A stretch of DNA of 34,373 bases from a virus (taxonomy: Duplodnaviria; Heunggongvirae; Uroviricota; Caudoviricetes), in the IMG/VR virus record IMGVR_UViG_2713896907_000006, positions 1 to 34,373 of that record; one strand, 5' to 3'. Under the pieces are notes generated by a model. That model did not search any database. It saw only the letters and a program-made list of their open reading frames with translations, and was not told where the DNA came from. This document shows, piece by piece, positions 1 to 34,373 of this stretch (position 1 is the stretch's first letter; every line of letters begins with the position of its first letter). The translations under genes and the position numbers were made by a program.

Positions 1-141
1 TTACTGCTTACACTGTAAGAACGCCGCAAACTCCGCTCCCCAGAAGCTCATCCGTATTTCACACAGCGAACCGTGCAACATCCAGATGATGAGGATTGCC
101 GTCACACAGAACGTGATGGCCGTAAGCGATTTTTGCGACAT
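1..141 (-). CDS. Hok/Gef-family type I toxin (46 aa membrane peptide)
   Basis: Reverse-strand translation MSQKSLTAITFCVTAILIIWMLHGSLCEIRMSFWGAEFAAFLQCKQ: single hydrophobic helix followed by the LCEIR motif and C-terminal AAF segment typical of Hok/Gef peptides. Stop codon is the first three bases of the window. Confidence 0.65.
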   Translation of the reverse strand: MSQKSLTAITFCVTAILIIWMLHGSLCEIRMSFWGAEFAAFLQCKQ

Positions 142-322
142 AGCACTTGCTCCTTTTCCGGAGAGGCGCTAACCTTTCACTTGTCAAGGTAATGCGGTTA
201 GGGCCTCGGTTAAACAGAGATGTTTTCCGGGGCCTTTCCACATCTGGCCTTCGGGTATTCCCTCCGACCATCAGCCGAAAGGCACCCGCGCGTAATCTAT
301 CGCTTTTTTGTTGCTCCGGCAA
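59..322 (-). CDS. Possible mok-like overlapping reading frame upstream of and overlapping the hok-like gene
   Basis: 87-aa ORF starting upstream of the hok-like ORF and overlapping it out of frame, as mok does in hok/sok loci. Positional inference only. Confidence 0.25.
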   Translation of the reverse strand: MPEQQKSDRLRAGAFRLMVGGNTRRPDVERPRKTSLFNRGPNRITLTSERLAPLRKRSKCYVAKIAYGHHVLCDGNPHHLDVARFAV

Positions 323-331
323 TTCTGCCTG

Positions 332-592
332 TTAATTCTGAGGTAAAGGCAAACTCATCTGATTGTTTCCCCTGTGTGAAGCTGGCAGCTCATGCCACGG
401 GATACCTTCTGAAGAGTGAACGCCGGAGGCGTGTTTCGATGTGAATTTATGGAAAGCTTCCAGTGTTGAGAAGCATACGCCGCATTCCAGATTGTTACAC
501 TGGTAATACTTTTGCCGCACGGTGTTTGAATCATTTTCCGGACGACTGGTGCGGATACGGGCAGATGCGCCACAAAGCGGACAACGGAACAT
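332..592 (-). CDS. ogr: Ogr/Delta-family zinc-finger late transcription activator
   Basis: Translation starts MFRCPLCGASARIRTSR and continues to YYQCNNLECGVCFSTLE: the CxxC...CxxC zinc-finger arrangement and N-terminal sequence match P2 Ogr. The ORF is somewhat longer than the roughly 72-aa P2 protein. Confidence 0.85.
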   Translation of the reverse strand: MFRCPLCGASARIRTSRPENDSNTVRQKYYQCNNLECGVCFSTLEAFHKFTSKHASGVHSSEGIPWHELPASHRGNNQMSLPLPQN

Positions 593-883
593 AGCGACCT
601 CCCTTAACGTAATGTTGGTGCCATTCTAAGTTGTACTGGTTCAGACTTTAACTGCCAATGAGTTTTGAGCAACAAACGAAAAATGATACGTCTAGCGAAG
701 TGGTTAAAATTATCTATTAATAACGAATCACCTCTTCTGGATTAATGTCGGAAATGAGACTGCCGGTGCCACATCAATAGTCTCTTTCATGCGACACCTA
801 TCTCTATTTGATAATCAGTGCATTAAATGTAGTGAAGAGTATATTTCATCACTTCAAATAATAAAATAAATCACCTGTTATCA

Positions 884-3055
884 CTATTTTAAGCTAATTG
901 TTGCATCTCTTAAATAATATTTTTTCCCATCTGCAATGCTCTTAAGTACAGCTTGAATGCGAGTCGGATGCTTTGAAATATCTATGTTTTTAGCTTTATT
1001 TCTAACCTCATCTACATCAAGTATTTCCCCGAAATAATGTTCGTCAAAAATAACATAAGGGCCATTCGTTGAATCTCTACCAGTTTCACCAATAATTTCA
1101 CACAATCTAATTATGCCATCTTCTGATAAGATGGAAGCAAGAAATTCTGATGTGAATTCAACAGAGATTCTCTTTAATTCGAAAAATATATTTGATTCTA
1201 GATGATAGTCAAAAAATATTTTTTTATTTAAAGCAATAGTAGCTGTTTCTTTGAAGGTATTCTCAAGTTCAACAATCTGATCTTTATTAATCTGTATATT
1301 ACTTGAGTTTCGTACGTTGTATAGTACTTCTGCTCCAAGTGGCGCATTCTCATATCGACCAATAATTTTTTTTATTAGCTCATATTGCTCACTACTTTTA
1401 GATATAATTTTATCAGTGAGCCAATACATCCTTCTATAAGGATCTTCTCTAATGAGACCATAGTTTTTTTCTAATGAAGATTTTAACTCTTGAGAGAAAA
1501 GAAATCTATCATAAATGCACGTTAATATATTAAAACTATCAACTTTACAACAAGCGTCTGTATAAATATTCATCATTTCGAAAAATCTTTCCTCGGCATT
1601 TTGAGATAACACATCCTCAAGGAATTTTTCTCTATTAATTTTCCCTTCGATGAAAAGAAGAATGTCATGATCGGAAATATATCCTACTGGAGTTTTAAAA
1701 TGAAGGGCAATATGAAGTCTTTGGGGGGCAGAAATTCTTCCTGCTGCATCTGAGTCAGATACATCATAAGGATAAGATTGATTGGGGCGTAGAAGAGGGA
1801 AAATATACTCTAATAGCCCCTGCATCAATGTACGTTCTCGTTGAGAAAAAATATTTAGTTTATTGCATCGTTCATGGCTATAATGCTCTATAATATCTTG
1901 ATGTTTATTCATTAACAAATTATTGATGGTTAATCTATTCCCAATGTACGCTTCAGGAGTATTCTTTATATGCTCATAAATTAAATTTGATTTGGTTGCG
2001 ATTAGAGATAAAGAAAAAAGATCTGAAGAACACACCTGACCTTTAATTTGCTCTAAAGTAAATCTCAAGTGGTTGAAAAACCTTTTCAACTCTCTTGGAT
2101 TATTAATTAATTGCTTGAAATAATTATGGTAAATCCAATCTAATCTTTCTTGATCTTTTTCAAATTTATCAGTTAAAAAACTATCACCTAGTTTTTCAAA
2201 CTCTGAATTTGCGATTTCATTCAGTCCTCTTTCTGAAATTACGGGAAGTGAAACTCGAAGTTGAACAATCTTATTAATATATTCTGACGGATTTATAATG
2301 TTATTTTTATCAAGCACAGAAATTAGGTAATTAGGATCAAATGCAAGTAAAAAAGAAGTGCCTGAGAAATTCGCAACAGCTTTGACTAACCGTAAAACTT
2401 GAAAAGCCTCAGAGGGTGTTAAACGATCAATATCATCAATTATTACAATTATAGGATGTTTTATTTTTTTTATCGCATTAGCCACTTGTTTTTTTCTATC
2501 TAAAAGATCAAGTTTTTTTAACTCAGCTATTTTTTTAGTAGCATGTCCAAAGCTTGAAAGAGATTTTTCTATGATAGATGCCCATGGTTCTGCTCCAGGG
2601 ATAAGTTTAGCAGCACTAAAGAGGCTAGAGTATGCAATTAGCTCTTTTGATACTTTTAATGCAACTTTTGATTTGTCTTTAATATTTAGTTGTGAAGAAA
2701 ACTGCAATAAAAAATCTTGAATCAAGGATTCAGGTTGGCCAGCCAACCATGGATTATATTCTATTATAATGGGTAAGGAGTCCTTTTCATTTAAGGCATT
2801 TTTTATAAGATTTATGACTGACGTTTTACCATATCCCCACTCAGCCTCTATAGATACAGTGAAACAATCATCGTCGTTATTTAATAGTAAAATATTTGCC
2901 AAATTATTTGCAAAAGTAAGTCTATTTAGTAAGTCTGGATCATTTTGACCGCCTAGTATAGGTTGGTCATTATGATATGCTCTCATTTTTAAACTCATCC
3001 ATTTAAATAAAGCAATCATAGAGATGTTGCTATTAATATTATAATATAGCCACAA
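884..3055 (-). CDS. KAP-family P-loop NTPase (about 700 aa), accessory cargo gene
   Basis: Walker A-like AEWGYGKTS, Walker B-like IIVIIDDIDRL, and the KAP-typical NPRELKRFFNHL motif, followed by roughly 370 aa of unassigned C-terminal sequence. The gene and both flanks are strongly AT-rich compared with neighbouring phage genes. True start is probably an internal ATG near 2986. Confidence 0.8.
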   Translation of the reverse strand: MWLYYNINSNISMIALFKWMSLKMRAYHNDQPILGGQNDPDLLNRLTFANNLANILLLNNDDDCFTVSIEAEWGYGKTSVINLIKNALNEKDSLPIIIEYNPWLAGQPESLIQDFLLQFSSQLNIKDKSKVALKVSKELIAYSSLFSAAKLIPGAEPWASIIEKSLSSFGHATKKIAELKKLDLLDRKKQVANAIKKIKHPIIVIIDDIDRLTPSEAFQVLRLVKAVANFSGTSFLLAFDPNYLISVLDKNNIINPSEYINKIVQLRVSLPVISERGLNEIANSEFEKLGDSFLTDKFEKDQERLDWIYHNYFKQLINNPRELKRFFNHLRFTLEQIKGQVCSSDLFSLSLIATKSNLIYEHIKNTPEAYIGNRLTINNLLMNKHQDIIEHYSHERCNKLNIFSQRERTLMQGLLEYIFPLLRPNQSYPYDVSDSDAAGRISAPQRLHIALHFKTPVGYISDHDILLFIEGKINREKFLEDVLSQNAEERFFEMMNIYTDACCKVDSFNILTCIYDRFLFSQELKSSLEKNYGLIREDPYRRMYWLTDKIISKSSEQYELIKKIIGRYENAPLGAEVLYNVRNSSNIQINKDQIVELENTFKETATIALNKKIFFDYHLESNIFFELKRISVEFTSEFLASILSEDGIIRLCEIIGETGRDSTNGPYVIFDEHYFGEILDVDEVRNKAKNIDISKHPTRIQAVLKSIADGKKYYLRDATISLK

Positions 3056-3375
3056 AAAAACTCAAAATTTGCATATTGAGCATAAACACATAACATCTAA
3101 GCAACGCTGAAAATTTATAACGAAAATCACCTAAAAAAACAAGTCTGTTATGCAAAGCTCATCGTGGCAGGTATGGCTTTGAGCACACTCGGTCAACTAT
3201 CTCTATTGATACTGAGTGGGGATTTGACAAATCACTATTTGACTGAGCTTTTCGGGGAGATAAACACATAGCGCTGTCATAAATTTTCGCTCTTGGTGCA
3301 GAAGTGACTGGCAGATCAGGTTTACTCTGTGTCGTAAGTGTTCCGCCCATGTTTAATCTAATGTATCAAAATTGC

Positions 3376-26740: not shown

Positions 26741-27700
26741 TTACTCCTTGTCCATTGCGTACAACCCATTAACCAGAGCAAACTGTGGCACTCCGTCCGC
26801 GATGAAAGTCGCATTAACTCCGCAGGCTTCGCGGATAGCGGGTGCCACAATCTCCGCCCCTCCACCGACAACCATCACCCGCCCGTAACCGGAAAAACCC
26901 GCCAGCGCGCGGATCACGCGTTGTTTCAGTGTTTCTTCCTTTTCACGAATCACCGCCATCAGGCTGGCGTAATGCGCGTCATTGTGGATGTGCTGGCGCA
27001 GCCAGGCTTCATCGTGGCGATGTTCGATAATAGTATTGGCGATGTGGTGACTGGTGCGCATACCGTTAGTGGCCATCACCGACAGTACGGCATCGGCCAT
27101 CAGAGAAACGCCTACGTGTGGATCGCAAAACACCTGGCTGATACCTGCCAGTTGCCCCTGAACCTTTGCCACATCCAGCGTGGTTCCGCCCAAATCCACA
27201 ATCAGCAGGGATTCAAACGGACTCATGTCAGCCAGTGCTTTAAAGCCAGCCGGAATGGATTCAGGCATAACCCGCACGTTACGGATAGTGAATGCCTCAC
27301 CGTTCTGGTACTCCACCGGGCGCATGACGTTCGCTTTTTTGCGGTTGATGTTGGCCATGTCCGGCTGTGCGTTTGTGTCGAAATATTCGCTCAGTGGCAG
27401 GGTGACAACCACATCTACTTCCTGTGGTGTGATGCCTGATTTGACCAGTGCGTGGTGAATGGCGATTACATTCACATCGCTGTACTGGTATTGCGTGTCG
27501 GTCGTCTGGACAAAGCGATCGCTGACCGGATCAAAACCATAGCGCACGCCATCAAGCATGTAGTTCGCAGGCTGCGAGCCACCGAATGGCGCAGACCATT
27601 CCGACTTGAAGCTGTTCGGGCTGATGGCGTTGCGGCGTTCGCCGTTCTCACTCCATGCCAGCTTGATGTTGGTGGAGCCGTCGTCGATACAAATTTTCAT
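26741..27700 (-). CDS. parM: ParM-like actin-type partition ATPase (plasmid R1 ParM/StbA family)
   Basis: MKICIDDGSTNIKLAW...ISPNSFKSEW...YQYSDVNVIAIHHAL...VMPESIPAGF...LLIVDLGGTTLDV...VMVVGGGAE closely parallels R1 ParM along the whole length. Confidence 0.9.
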   Translation of the reverse strand: MKICIDDGSTNIKLAWSENGERRNAISPNSFKSEWSAPFGGSQPANYMLDGVRYGFDPVSDRFVQTTDTQYQYSDVNVIAIHHALVKSGITPQEVDVVVTLPLSEYFDTNAQPDMANINRKKANVMRPVEYQNGEAFTIRNVRVMPESIPAGFKALADMSPFESLLIVDLGGTTLDVAKVQGQLAGISQVFCDPHVGVSLMADAVLSVMATNGMRTSHHIANTIIEHRHDEAWLRQHIHNDAHYASLMAVIREKEETLKQRVIRALAGFSGYGRVMVVGGGAEIVAPAIREACGVNATFIADGVPQFALVNGLYAMDKE

Positions 27701-33019: not shown

Positions 33020-33331
33020 ATGTCAAGTGGGTACGAAAAAAAACTGAAAGAGATACGGAAAAGTGAAGGGTTAACTCAAGCTGAGTTTGCTGATGTTACT
33101 GGGATAAATCTCGGAACTATAAAGAATTATGAGAGCGGTAAAAGAGAGGTTGGTTTAAGCGTTGTTGATCGCGTAATTAATTCTAAGGATTTCGAAAAAT
33201 ACACTATATGGCTTATGACGGGAAAAACAAATGAGGCTGCAGGGCAGATCAGTCCCTCTCTCTCCCCTGATGGGCCAGAAAACACATCGTCTTCTCAAAA
33301 ATCCCGCAAGACTGGCACACAGCCCGGCTAA
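33020..33331 (+). CDS. C: Immunity repressor C (P2 C-type)
   Basis: 103 aa; N-terminal helix-turn-helix region (LTQAEFADVTGINLGTIKNYESGKR) and KYTIWLMTGKT segment parallel P2 C; directly upstream of int. Confidence 0.85.
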   Translation: MSSGYEKKLKEIRKSEGLTQAEFADVTGINLGTIKNYESGKREVGLSVVDRVINSKDFEKYTIWLMTGKTNEAAGQISPSLSPDGPENTSSSQKSRKTGTQPG

Positions 33332-33380
33332 TCATGGAACGCTGGGGGCATGGTGGTCTTGTAACGCTGGGGTTTCACGA

Positions 33381-34373
33381 ATGAGCATAAAATCAATTCC
33401 GGGAGGTTATCTTCTTGACATGCGTCCAGAGGGGCGCAAAGGCAAGCGCATTCGCAAAAAATTTAAAACGAAATCGGATGCAGTTTTATATGAGCGGTGG
33501 GTGCTGGCGCAACAGCATAACAAGGAGTGGAAAGGAAACTCTATTGATCGCCGTCCTCTGTCAGTGCTTATTGAATTGTGGTGGAAATATCACGGCCAGT
33601 TAATGAGGTCAGGGCATAACACGCGTCTTAAATTGCTGCGTCTGAGTGAGGCAATGGATGACCCGTGCGTGCATAAACTTAATACAACGATGCTCACCGA
33701 GCTACGTGTGTCCAGGATAGAGCAGGGGATACAGCCCAGCACCATTAATCGAGAGATTGGGGCGTTAAGCGCGATGTTTACTGCACTCATCTCATCCGGC
33801 CATTTTCTTAACGATAACCCCGTTCAAGGCCTTAAAGGAATGAAGGTTAACGAGCGCGAAATGGGATATCTGAGTAAGTCTGAATGTGTTCAGTTGCTGG
33901 ATGCACTGGCTGAAAATCCCGATGAACAGCTGGCTGTCGAAATCCTTCTGTCGACCGGGGCGCGATGGGGCGAGGTAGCGGCACTGGAGCAGCGCCGTGT
34001 TCTTCATTGTCGAATCACTTTTTCAAAAACGAAGAACAGCAAAAACCGTACCGTTCCTATTTCTGAAAGCCTGTTTGAAAAGATCAAAAAACGGGGCGGG
34101 AAACTGGTTTTTCCGACGCTGGATTATCCATTGGTTCGCGATGTCATCAAAACGGTCGCATCTGATGTTCCCGACGGCCAGGCTGTTCATGCGCTGCGCC
34201 ACACCTTCGCCAGTCATTTCATGATGAACGGCGGCAATATTCTGACGCTCCAGAAAATTCTGGGGCACGCAAAGATTCAGACAACGATGATTTATGCCCA
34301 TCTTGCGCCGGATTACCTGCAGGATGCGGTGAGATTTAATCCCCTTGGAGATGCCTTATATGAAGCCTCTTAA
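33381..34373 (+). CDS. int: Tyrosine integrase (P2 Int family)
   Basis: MSIKSIPGGYLLDMRPEGRKGKRIRKKF... parallels the P2 Int N-terminus; C-terminal catalytic region with HALRHTFASHF and an LGHAKIQTTMIYAHL tyrosine motif. Start is the ATG at 33381, not the upstream 33231 in the ORF track. Stop codon is the last three bases of the window. Confidence 0.9.
   Translation: MSIKSIPGGYLLDMRPEGRKGKRIRKKFKTKSDAVLYERWVLAQQHNKEWKGNSIDRRPLSVLIELWWKYHGQLMRSGHNTRLKLLRLSEAMDDPCVHKLNTTMLTELRVSRIEQGIQPSTINREIGALSAMFTALISSGHFLNDNPVQGLKGMKVNEREMGYLSKSECVQLLDALAENPDEQLAVEILLSTGARWGEVAALEQRRVLHCRITFSKTKNSKNRTVPISESLFEKIKKRGGKLVFPTLDYPLVRDVIKTVASDVPDGQAVHALRHTFASHFMMNGGNILTLQKILGHAKIQTTMIYAHLAPDYLQDAVRFNPLGDALYEAS

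Follow-up and report, generated by a model that had tools for sequence, protein, structure and literature searches.

Among the described systems closest to the locus analysed here, the hok/sok (parB) locus of plasmid R1 encodes a 52-aa Hok toxin, and its mRNA leader follows a model of two alternative states, in which translation of mok up to the hok Shine-Dalgarno sequence is mandatory (both summarised in PMC9841398). A prophage-borne counterpart, hokW-sokW, is found in the Stx2 prophage Sp5, where the complementarity between sokW and the 5′ UTR extends over 71 nt and no mok has been described (PMC8621323). Escherichia coli K-12 carries hokB/sokB and hokC/sokC, both with annotated mok genes that start at AUG. 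A survey of Hok homologs (bioRxiv 10.1101/2025.08.07.668861) provides clusters of these peptides at the 60% identity level; it reports an enrichment of hok in prophages, refers to cluster 72 as a “high-abundance cluster”, and states that the work was restricted to coding sequence, with Mok, Sok and mRNA structure left out of the analysis. Neither P2-like phages nor ogr is mentioned in that preprint.

Here, we analysed the left end of a 34,373-nt stretch of viral DNA (IMG/VR record IMGVR_UViG_2713896907_000006), hereafter the window. The locus found there very probably represents a type I toxin-antitoxin module of the hok/sok type that is intact and works by a leader switch and a Sok RNA; it is cargo of a P88-like prophage (Xuanwuvirus, related to P2), situated between ogr and the attachment site. 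Like R1 hok/sok, it combines a small Hok toxin bearing the conserved C..T...LCE...E core, a 5′ end that can pair with either a 3′ fold-back element or an upstream box, with a GAGG box sequestered or released by this switch, and a predicted cis-antisense RNA of about 62 nt whose promoter overlaps the hok ribosome-binding region, with a predicted mRNA length of about 400 nt. It departs from R1 in the length of Hok (46 aa instead of 52 aa), in belonging to a subfamily without a conserved mok frame, in having a separate terminator hairpin after the fold-back element (fbi), and in residing in an integrating P2-like phage, whereas the R1 locus is on a plasmid. With K-12 hokB/sokB and hokC/sokC it shares the Rfam leader model and the position of Sok relative to the leader, but the K-12 loci reach 110-118 bits against 48 bits here. 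The locus has its prophage residence in common with hokW-sokW; however, HokW is a Gef/HokD-like peptide of 51 aa (MKQQKAM...DYESEK) that belongs to cluster 35 of the survey, while the window peptide belongs to cluster 72, and the two are 31% identical over 35 aa. Membership in the HokW/SokW group, which the label “MokW-like host killing” would imply, was rejected, the primers of the original paper showing HokW to be a different peptide; “MokW-like” is thus a loose and misleading name, both for the P88 gene and for PHROG 251. Because HokW is a different, Gef-like peptide, the experimental results obtained with hokW are not directly transferable. The elements of the locus lying within the window are the following.

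1 to 141, minus strand: hok, a 46-aa Hok/Gef toxin, with ATG at 141-139 and stop codon at 3-1 (open reading frame list, Pfam PF01848, PHROG 251, RefSeq).
59 to 193, minus strand: doubtful, allele-specific mok-like frame from AUU 193-191 or UUG 187-185 to TGA 61-59, in frame with the open reading frame 59..322.
147 to 175, plus strand: predicted Sok promoter, with −35 TTGCTC at 147-152, a 17-nt spacer and −10 TAACCT at 170-175 (conservation).
150 to 155, minus strand: hok Shine-Dalgarno sequence AAGGAG, 8 nt before the AUG, within a small CUCC/GGAG hairpin (sequence reading).
163 to 207, minus strand: predicted Sok-target hairpin of the “open” hok mRNA, with stem GAGGC-CUAACC (207-196) / GGUUAG-GCCUC (174-163) and loop 195-175.
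About 183 to 244, plus strand: predicted Sok RNA of about 62 nt, with a 5′ single-stranded tail, a GC-rich hairpin and a U-tract (positional transfer from K-12 sokB/sokC).
228 to 241, minus strand: ucb-like box, GUGGAAAGGCCCCG, alternative partner of the 5′ end (RNAalifold helix 1).
273 to 287, minus strand: tac-like 5′ end of the hok mRNA, GGGUGCCUUUCGGCU, with predicted +1 at 287, the first position of the Rfam leader model.
294 to 322, minus strand: predicted hok promoter, with −35 TTGCCG at 322-317, a 17-nt spacer and −10 TAGATT at 299-294 (read from the sequence and positioned relative to the predicted +1).

A previous sequence-only reading of the window had proposed a Hok-like peptide of 46 aa in the first 141 nt of the reverse strand, abutting the end of ogr and cut by the window edge, and the analysis bears out all three points. 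The product of the complete 46-aa open reading frame at 1..141 (-) is MSQKSLTAITFCVTAILIIWMLHGSLCEIRMSFWGAEFAAFLQCKQ. It scores 29.9 bits against the Pfam HOK_GEF profile PF01848, above the gathering score of 22 bits, with residues 7-44 aligned to profile positions 5-42 of 42, and it matches PHROG 251 with an E-value of 1.3e-22. RefSeq names it “Hok/Gef family protein” (WP_000078916.1) and applies a Hok/Gef annotation to it in more than 1000 E. coli genomes, including a 99.9%-identical one. In a BLASTP comparison, R1 Hok is 39% identical over 31 aa, across the conserved C-T...LCE...E core, and C12, T14, L26, C27, E28 and E37 of the peptide align with C16, T18, L30, C31, E32 and E41 of R1 Hok; the sequence logo of the survey gives M1, C16, T18, L30, C31, E32 and E41, in its own numbering, as the positions conserved in more than 80% of Hok sequences (10.1101/2025.08.07.668861). 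The peptide displays the traits of the family: it is around 50 aa long, has a hydrophobic helix at its N-terminus and carries the conserved positions. Comparisons with 13 homologs gave dN/dS values of 0-0.54, which indicate purifying selection on the open reading frame. By these sequence criteria, the peptide is a member of the Hok/Gef family and not the product of a chance open reading frame. The HokA equivalog NF007290 was rejected as a more precise assignment, at 34 bits versus a cut-off of 89, although it is the nearest NCBIfam entry. The neighbouring gene at 332-592 (-) encodes an Ogr/Delta zinc-finger protein (Pfam Ogr_Delta, 52.4 bits), and the window begins at the hok stop codon, so that the 3′ UTR is absent from it.

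The position of hok as the outermost gene of the window, together with the frequency of chromosomal hok loci in E. coli, could make it a piece of host DNA at the attachment site, and the earlier reading had left the choice between a chromosomal locus and a module of the element to a comparison with an empty attB site. In strain 100181, which is 99.9% identical over window positions 1-700, hok is flanked by ihfA on one side and ogr on the other, and the integrase end of the prophage adjoins btuC. A 25-nt att core, ggccgctctgcggccttttttcttt, which is the ihfA terminator, is present at both prophage junctions, whereas in the empty site of K-12 only about 100 nt separate ihfA from btuC, with a single copy of the core and no hok. 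The core lies 264 nt past the hok stop codon, which would place it about 264-288 nt left of the window, followed by ihfA. Since the att core is 264 nt beyond the hok stop, the hok locus is inside the element and is prophage cargo, not host DNA. The locus is moreover found, with parM, in the genomes of isolated P88-like phages, and hok moves with ogr to many chromosomal positions. The question is thereby settled in favour of a module of the element: mapping of the att core against the empty K-12 site eliminated the host locus, which retains practically no probability. The prophage boundary of the window should accordingly be shifted by about 290 nt to the left, to the att core in the ihfA terminator. 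The window is not alone in this respect, as 38 of the 120 IMG/VR copies are on contigs that end at the same point, the hok stop; trimming of prophage calls at gene boundaries hence removes the hok 3′ UTR, with its fold-back element and terminator, from 38/120 viral-contig copies.

The only significant Rfam match in the locus was obtained on the hok strand (-), from window position 287 down to 128, with model positions 1-157 of RF01794 “sok” (E 1.3e-9); the match asked for in the sequence-only reading thus exists, though its score of 48.4 bits is under the gathering score of 59. The same model matches the K-12 loci on the hok strand as well (118 bits for hokC and 110 bits for hokB), and the annotated K-12 sokC and sokB correspond to the complement of its positions ~43-106. 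RF01794 is therefore misnamed and models the hok-sense mRNA leader, and used at its gathering score it misses this abundant hok subfamily. The first position of the model coincides with the predicted +1 at 287, and the tac-like 5′ end is nearly invariant in the alignment of homologs. The predicted hok promoter region adjoins the ogr stop codon (332-334). The hok Shine-Dalgarno sequence is conserved in 14/15 homologs and is paired in the predicted folds. On the opposite strand, the −10 box of Sok is invariant in 15/15 homologs and its −35 TTGCTC is found in 11/15; this promoter matches only 6/12 positions of the sigma-70 consensus, and its −10 box is located 7-8 nt upstream of the transferred Sok start. 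A generic sigma-70 scan of the locus called neither the hok nor the Sok promoter proposed here, both being weak by consensus and below the scan thresholds. The R1 promoter boxes served for comparison with those of the window. Both promoters were placed by homology and conservation and are hence to be read as predictions.

To recover the part of the mRNA lying beyond the window edge, where the earlier reading had expected a 3′ fold-back element, the 3′ UTR was taken from the 99.9%-identical relative instead of the window's own genome, and from 75 viral-contig copies. The predicted transcript is about 410 nt long, starting at window position 287 and ending at a terminator on the minus strand, 87-122 nt beyond the left edge of the window. 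The fold-back element is present in it; on the window's own contig it would be expected as AGGGTGCCTTATCCGG on the plus strand, about 50-66 nt left of position 1. In the minimum free energy fold of the full-length RNA (z = -7.4), nt 1-15 are paired with nt ~335-352, a segment that ends about 66 nt past the hok stop, and the ucb-like box closes a hairpin over the GAGG at 204-207. An alignment-free duplex search of the 5′ 22 nt against the 3′ UTR, with shuffled controls, gave a best tac/fbi duplex of -29 to -36 kcal/mol in 14/15 homologs, against about -20.7 for shuffled UTRs. Among the viral-contig copies with enough 3′ flank (n = 75), the duplex was stronger than in any of 50 shuffles in 66, and in 74 its end fell 64-69 nt past the stop.

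The alternative state emerged from the consensus structure, in which RNAalifold pairs the 5′ end with the box at 228-241, while the partner of the GAGG box is the stretch complementary to the Sok −10 region. Helix 1 (columns 15-29 with 62-75) has 97.9% of its cells paired, and the Sok-target helix (columns 98-110 with 133-144), which also forms in the fold of the truncated mRNA, has 97%. Over the whole structure, which was derived from the same alignment, 97.3% of the cells are paired, versus about 40% with slid partners; likewise, 13 pairs are compensated and 0/500 shuffles reach the observed values, as scored on the alignment that gave the structure. RNAalifold returned no tac/fbi pairing on the MAFFT alignment, because MAFFT misaligned the 3′ UTRs of diverged copies by 2-3 columns. 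When the RNA is cut after the stable hairpin of its 3′ UTR, it folds into the tac/ucb pairing plus the target hairpin, which is exactly the alternative found by RNAalifold. The loop of this hairpin (195-175) is the most variable part of the leader, as seen both in the alignment of homologs and among 57 distinct leaders. The hok AUG is paired with a coding segment in both predicted folds (columns 167-176 with 278-287). A plasmid copy from E. albertii, in which hok is broken, has also lost the Sok hairpin and fbi, and serves as an internal negative control. By these models, both mutually exclusive states of the R1 scheme are encoded, namely a closed tac/fbi state and an open tac/ucb state with the target hairpin.

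The sequence-only reading had further expected an antisense Sok-like RNA on the plus strand around 150-330. A Sok RNA is indeed predicted on that strand, but within narrower limits, with its promoter at 147-175 and the RNA itself at ~183-244. The fold of the Sok segment has a z-score of -4.3, and in 14/15 homologs the Sok-sense strand folds more stably than the hok-sense strand of the same segment, since G-U pairs turn into C-A mismatches on the other strand. Such a strand-biased hairpin stability argues for selection on a plus-strand RNA.

Taken with the R1 model, these elements would operate as follows. A transcript of about 410 nt would start at window position 287 on the minus strand and run through hok to the terminator ~90-120 nt left of the window. 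In this full-length RNA, the first 15 nt would pair with the segment ending ~66 nt past the hok stop, and this tac/fbi pairing would keep the leader in its closed form, in which the ucb-like box covers the GAGG box. Upon removal of the 3′ element, the 5′ end would pair with the ucb-like box instead, and the leader would refold into a form whose hairpin displays the variable loop. The conserved plus-strand promoter would give rise to a Sok RNA of about 62 nt, which would be complementary to this loop and to the leader upstream of it, and would be expected to stop expression and trigger decay of the mRNA. Should the supply of Sok end, the 46-aa Hok would be made and the inner membrane damaged. 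The synthesis of both RNAs, their relative stabilities and the 3′ processing of the mRNA are presumed in this scheme.

The locus also parts from R1 in the leader frame. An 87-aa open reading frame at 59..322 (-), with a TTG start and overlapping hok, had been taken for a mok-like frame in the sequence-only reading. It has no family match in Pfam and PHROG profile searches. As drawn, the interpretation finds no support: the first 12 codons of the frame are upstream of the predicted +1, and the likely hok −35 hexamer (322-317) opens with its TTG. Since it begins upstream of the predicted transcription start, this open reading frame as drawn cannot, on that reading of the sequence, be mok, and in most relatives the frame is closed or lacks a start. 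In 12 of the 14 homologs with an intact hok, none of the three frames entering the hok start contains an ATG, GTG or TTG; P88, Chuche and ETEC4088 belong to these 12, although their Hok is the same as that of the window or deviates from it at a single residue, and several homologs have an in-frame stop 43 nt upstream of hok. Among 118 viral-contig copies, representing 57 distinct leaders, 31/57 leaders are without a canonical start into hok; in the others, the start positions range from -130 to -5. A mok leader is thus not conserved in this hok subfamily, and translation of hok probably does not depend on one.

A shorter mok-like frame is nonetheless possible for the window allele, which is a common one (roughly 30/118 viral-contig loci), and with it an operation exactly as in R1, with mok translated, Sok blocking the initiation of mok and hok coupled to mok. 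The frame is open from AUU 193-191 or UUG 187-185 through the hok start to TGA 61-59, and these codons stand at the RF01794 positions of the mokB and mokC AUGs, beneath Sok nt 1-11. Pairing of the hok AUG in both folds calls for an opener, a part played in R1 by mok translation, which is mandatory there (PMC9841398). Neither codon is a strong start, however, with a distance to the GAGG box of 10 nt for the AUU and 16 nt for the UUG, and the scarcity and variable positions of starts in the relatives, as well as the start of the 87-aa frame before that of transcription, make a fully R1-like operation doubtful. As a substitute for mok, a conserved four-codon mini-ORF (GUG-NNN-GGU-UAG, ~179-168) was considered and not adopted, as it is without a Shine-Dalgarno sequence. 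Its first codon is GUG in 13/15 copies, UUG in one and GUA in one, but this conservation is confounded, as the opposite strand bears the Sok −10 box and the start of Sok.

Weak promoters and missing mok starts, the latter of a kind that would abolish Hok synthesis in R1, also raise the prospect of a silent or decaying relic that is unable to kill, like several hok loci of K-12, and the E. albertii plasmid provides one known decayed copy. That copy lost hok, the Sok hairpin and fbi together, while in the present locus the open reading frame is intact and under purifying selection and the RNA elements are all conserved with compensatory changes. The peptide itself speaks against decay as well. 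Construct 72_1621 of the Hok survey, amino-acid-identical to the window peptide, was expressed from the arabinose promoter of pBAD to assay toxicity, and the text counts 42/45 homologs as toxic, the only constructs given as non-toxic being 19_179, 60_1482 and 69_1540 (10.1101/2025.08.07.668861). As 72_1621 is not among these three constructs, it is counted here as toxic; toxicity of the identical peptide, a test of which the earlier reading had called for, is thus reported by the text of the preprint. A relic is therefore very improbable.

As to the role of the module, our best guess, by analogy and in line with the earlier reading, is addiction, that is, killing of cells that lose the element. 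Addiction is favoured because R1 carries the same two stability modules, one of the parM type and hok/sok: the present prophage encodes a ParM (274 bits), a partitioning/stability gene is annotated beside parM in relatives, and P88-like phages repeatedly carry parM and hok in combination. A main role in anti-phage defence through abortive infection, within a defence cargo region of the prophage, would be suggested by a 31%-GC island beyond ogr, at ~740 nt from the hok locus, that encodes a PifA-like KAP NTPase (PADLOC E 1.4e-64) in a slot occupied by a different gene in strain SE11; no PADLOC model matches the hok peptide, though, and we regard defence as the main role as unlikely. A contribution to the lytic cycle, in which Sok would be lost after induction and Hok would speed lysis and release, draws on Sp5, where sokW RNA is gone after mitomycin C treatment, HokW is then made, and phage yield is halved without the locus (PMC8621323). 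The gene arrangement is compatible with it: ogr, the late-gene activator, is co-oriented with hok and ends 10 nt before the hok −35, and read-through from ogr into hok is possible because no terminator intervenes. Against it stand the different Hok cluster of HokW, the two-fold size of the effect in Sp5, and the fact that the phage already encodes its own holin and endolysin. A lytic role seems unlikely.

The module is widespread. It is found at 93-96% identity in the isolated P2-like phages P88 (genus Xuanwuvirus), Chuche, PhiR44_2, 500465-2, P884B11 and Citrobacter phage Shae_phiSM, and in 86/120 IMG/VR copies, the gene immediately upstream is ogr-like and has the same orientation. At least one copy is present in 1,757 of 5,426 complete E. 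coli genomes, with a maximum of nine per genome, and in diverged copies the homology runs from the terminator to the promoter. The hok locus is already annotated and catalogued, and as such it is ordinary. What novelty is left lies in an apparent mok independence and in the hypervariable Sok-target loop; for P88 or Xuanwuvirus, literature searches on hok or ParM gave no specific results. We tentatively suggest, as one possibility, that cluster-72 hok represents a mok-independent variant of the switch, in which hok is unlocked without a leader open reading frame and the target loop, hypervariable between copies that are otherwise nearly identical, sets the specificity of Sok, so that up to nine copies could coexist in one genome without cross-talk. 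Within the same suggestion, the company of two plasmid-type stability modules, parM with its partner gene and hok/sok, in integrating P88-like phages would hint that these phages pass through a plasmid-like phase, during which post-segregational killing is of importance.

A 34.5-kb circular record deposited as a “plasmid” is a complete P88-like genome with an integrase. Records of Stx-converting phages carry a cluster-72 copy of hok too: it is present at 81% identity in about 100 such phages, and survey construct 72_1589 is the Stx-phage variant to which this copy at 81% DNA identity corresponds.

Both R1-type stability modules are carried by one integrating P2-like phage, since it encodes an actin-like segregation ATPase, ParM, in addition to hok/sok. 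The ParM product scores 274 bits on Pfam StbA_N and also matches the ParM C-terminal domain, and the gene downstream of parM is annotated in relatives as a 'plasmid partitioning/stability family protein'. The parM gene is kept across P88-like phages, and the 34.5-kb circular 'plasmid' record NZ_CP148288.1 is a whole P88-like phage genome with integrase and parM aboard. The features considered here are listed below, with the basis of each assignment.

Window 26741-27700 (-): ParM actin-like segregation ATPase (Pfam StbA_N and ParM C-terminal domain).
Window 175-199, columns ~105-125 of the alignment of 15 hok-locus homologs: Sok-target hairpin loop, equivalent to the Sok 5' tail (alignment variability).
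Window 168-179 (-): four-codon mini-ORF GUG-NNN-GGU-UAG (alignment of the 15 homologs).
L020, E. albertii plasmid pEA5_1, 76-492: decayed hok copy (sequence and folding comparison).
Window 884-3055 (-): KAP-family P-loop NTPase, PifA-like, 723 aa (Pfam KAP_NTPase, PADLOC PifA).
L001 5712-5736 and L003 ~1873-1897 (prophage junctions in strain 100181), L004 ~1211-1235 (empty K-12 site): phage att core (coincides with the ihfA terminator).

The strand matched by Rfam model RF01794 ('sok antitoxin') is the hok-sense one, both in the window (128-287, -) and at the K-12 hokC and hokB loci (hits at L008 402-554, - and L009 467-618, -). Its extent is that of the hok mRNA from +1 through to the hok AUG, and true Sok is the complement of model positions ~43-106 only. 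The 46-aa Hok subfamily scores 48 on this model, under the gathering score of 59, and this abundant subfamily is therefore overlooked by default annotation.

Within an otherwise highly conserved leader, the Sok-target loop is the most variable stretch and varies even among copies with identical Hok, and a YUNR-type motif (CUUG, CUUA, CUAA and similar) is kept in most alleles. The loop may set Sok specificity where one genome holds several copies (up to 9 per genome). The mini-ORF ends 12 nt upstream of the hok AAGGAG box and starts with GUG in 13 of the 15 homologs, the remaining two having UUG and GUA. Its conservation may be incidental, because the Sok start site and -10 box fall within the same stretch on the opposite strand and no Shine-Dalgarno sequence is present for the mini-ORF at window 168-179.

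The E. albertii copy is decayed: hok has a stop at codon 2 and lacks 15 codons, and the Sok hairpin is gone (-7 vs about -26 kcal/mol). The duplex search found no duplex above background for its fbi (the 3' fold-back element), and this copy is still annotated as a 33-aa 'hok/gef family protein'.

At the upstream side of the locus, ogr and hok are co-oriented, the end of ogr lies 10 nt from the predicted hok -35 box, and no terminator-like site separates the two (window 300-334). Transcripts reading through from ogr would carry hok with a 5' extension, with which the normal pairings of tac, the mRNA 5' end, would not be possible. At the other side, for 38 of the 120 viral-contig copies the contig terminates on the hok stop codon or within 1 nt of it, just as the window does at position 1 (examples in IMG/VR are L027, L035, L050 and L067). 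When a prophage call is cut back to a gene boundary, the 3' UTR of hok with its fbi and terminator is systematically lost, together with the ~290 nt of phage sequence that reach to the att core.

The gene ihfA encodes the integration host factor alpha subunit, and its rho-independent terminator is itself the att core; integration restores this terminator on the ihfA side. The window prophage is ~3.3 kb shorter than that of the near-identical strain 100181 (window 33231-34373 vs L003 2004-3384), where an additional 131-aa ORF sits between integrase and btuC and other cargo is different as well. Given these differences, the two prophages are mosaics, not one same element.

The NTPase gene occupies an AT-rich island (~600-3300; GC 29-35% vs ~52% in the surroundings) flanked by ogr and tail gene D. 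Its product scores 161.6 bits on Pfam KAP_NTPase and matches PADLOC PifA over its N-terminal half (E 1.4e-64). The slot looks like a variable defence-cargo site, because strain SE11 holds an unrelated gene in the same position between ogr and gene D.
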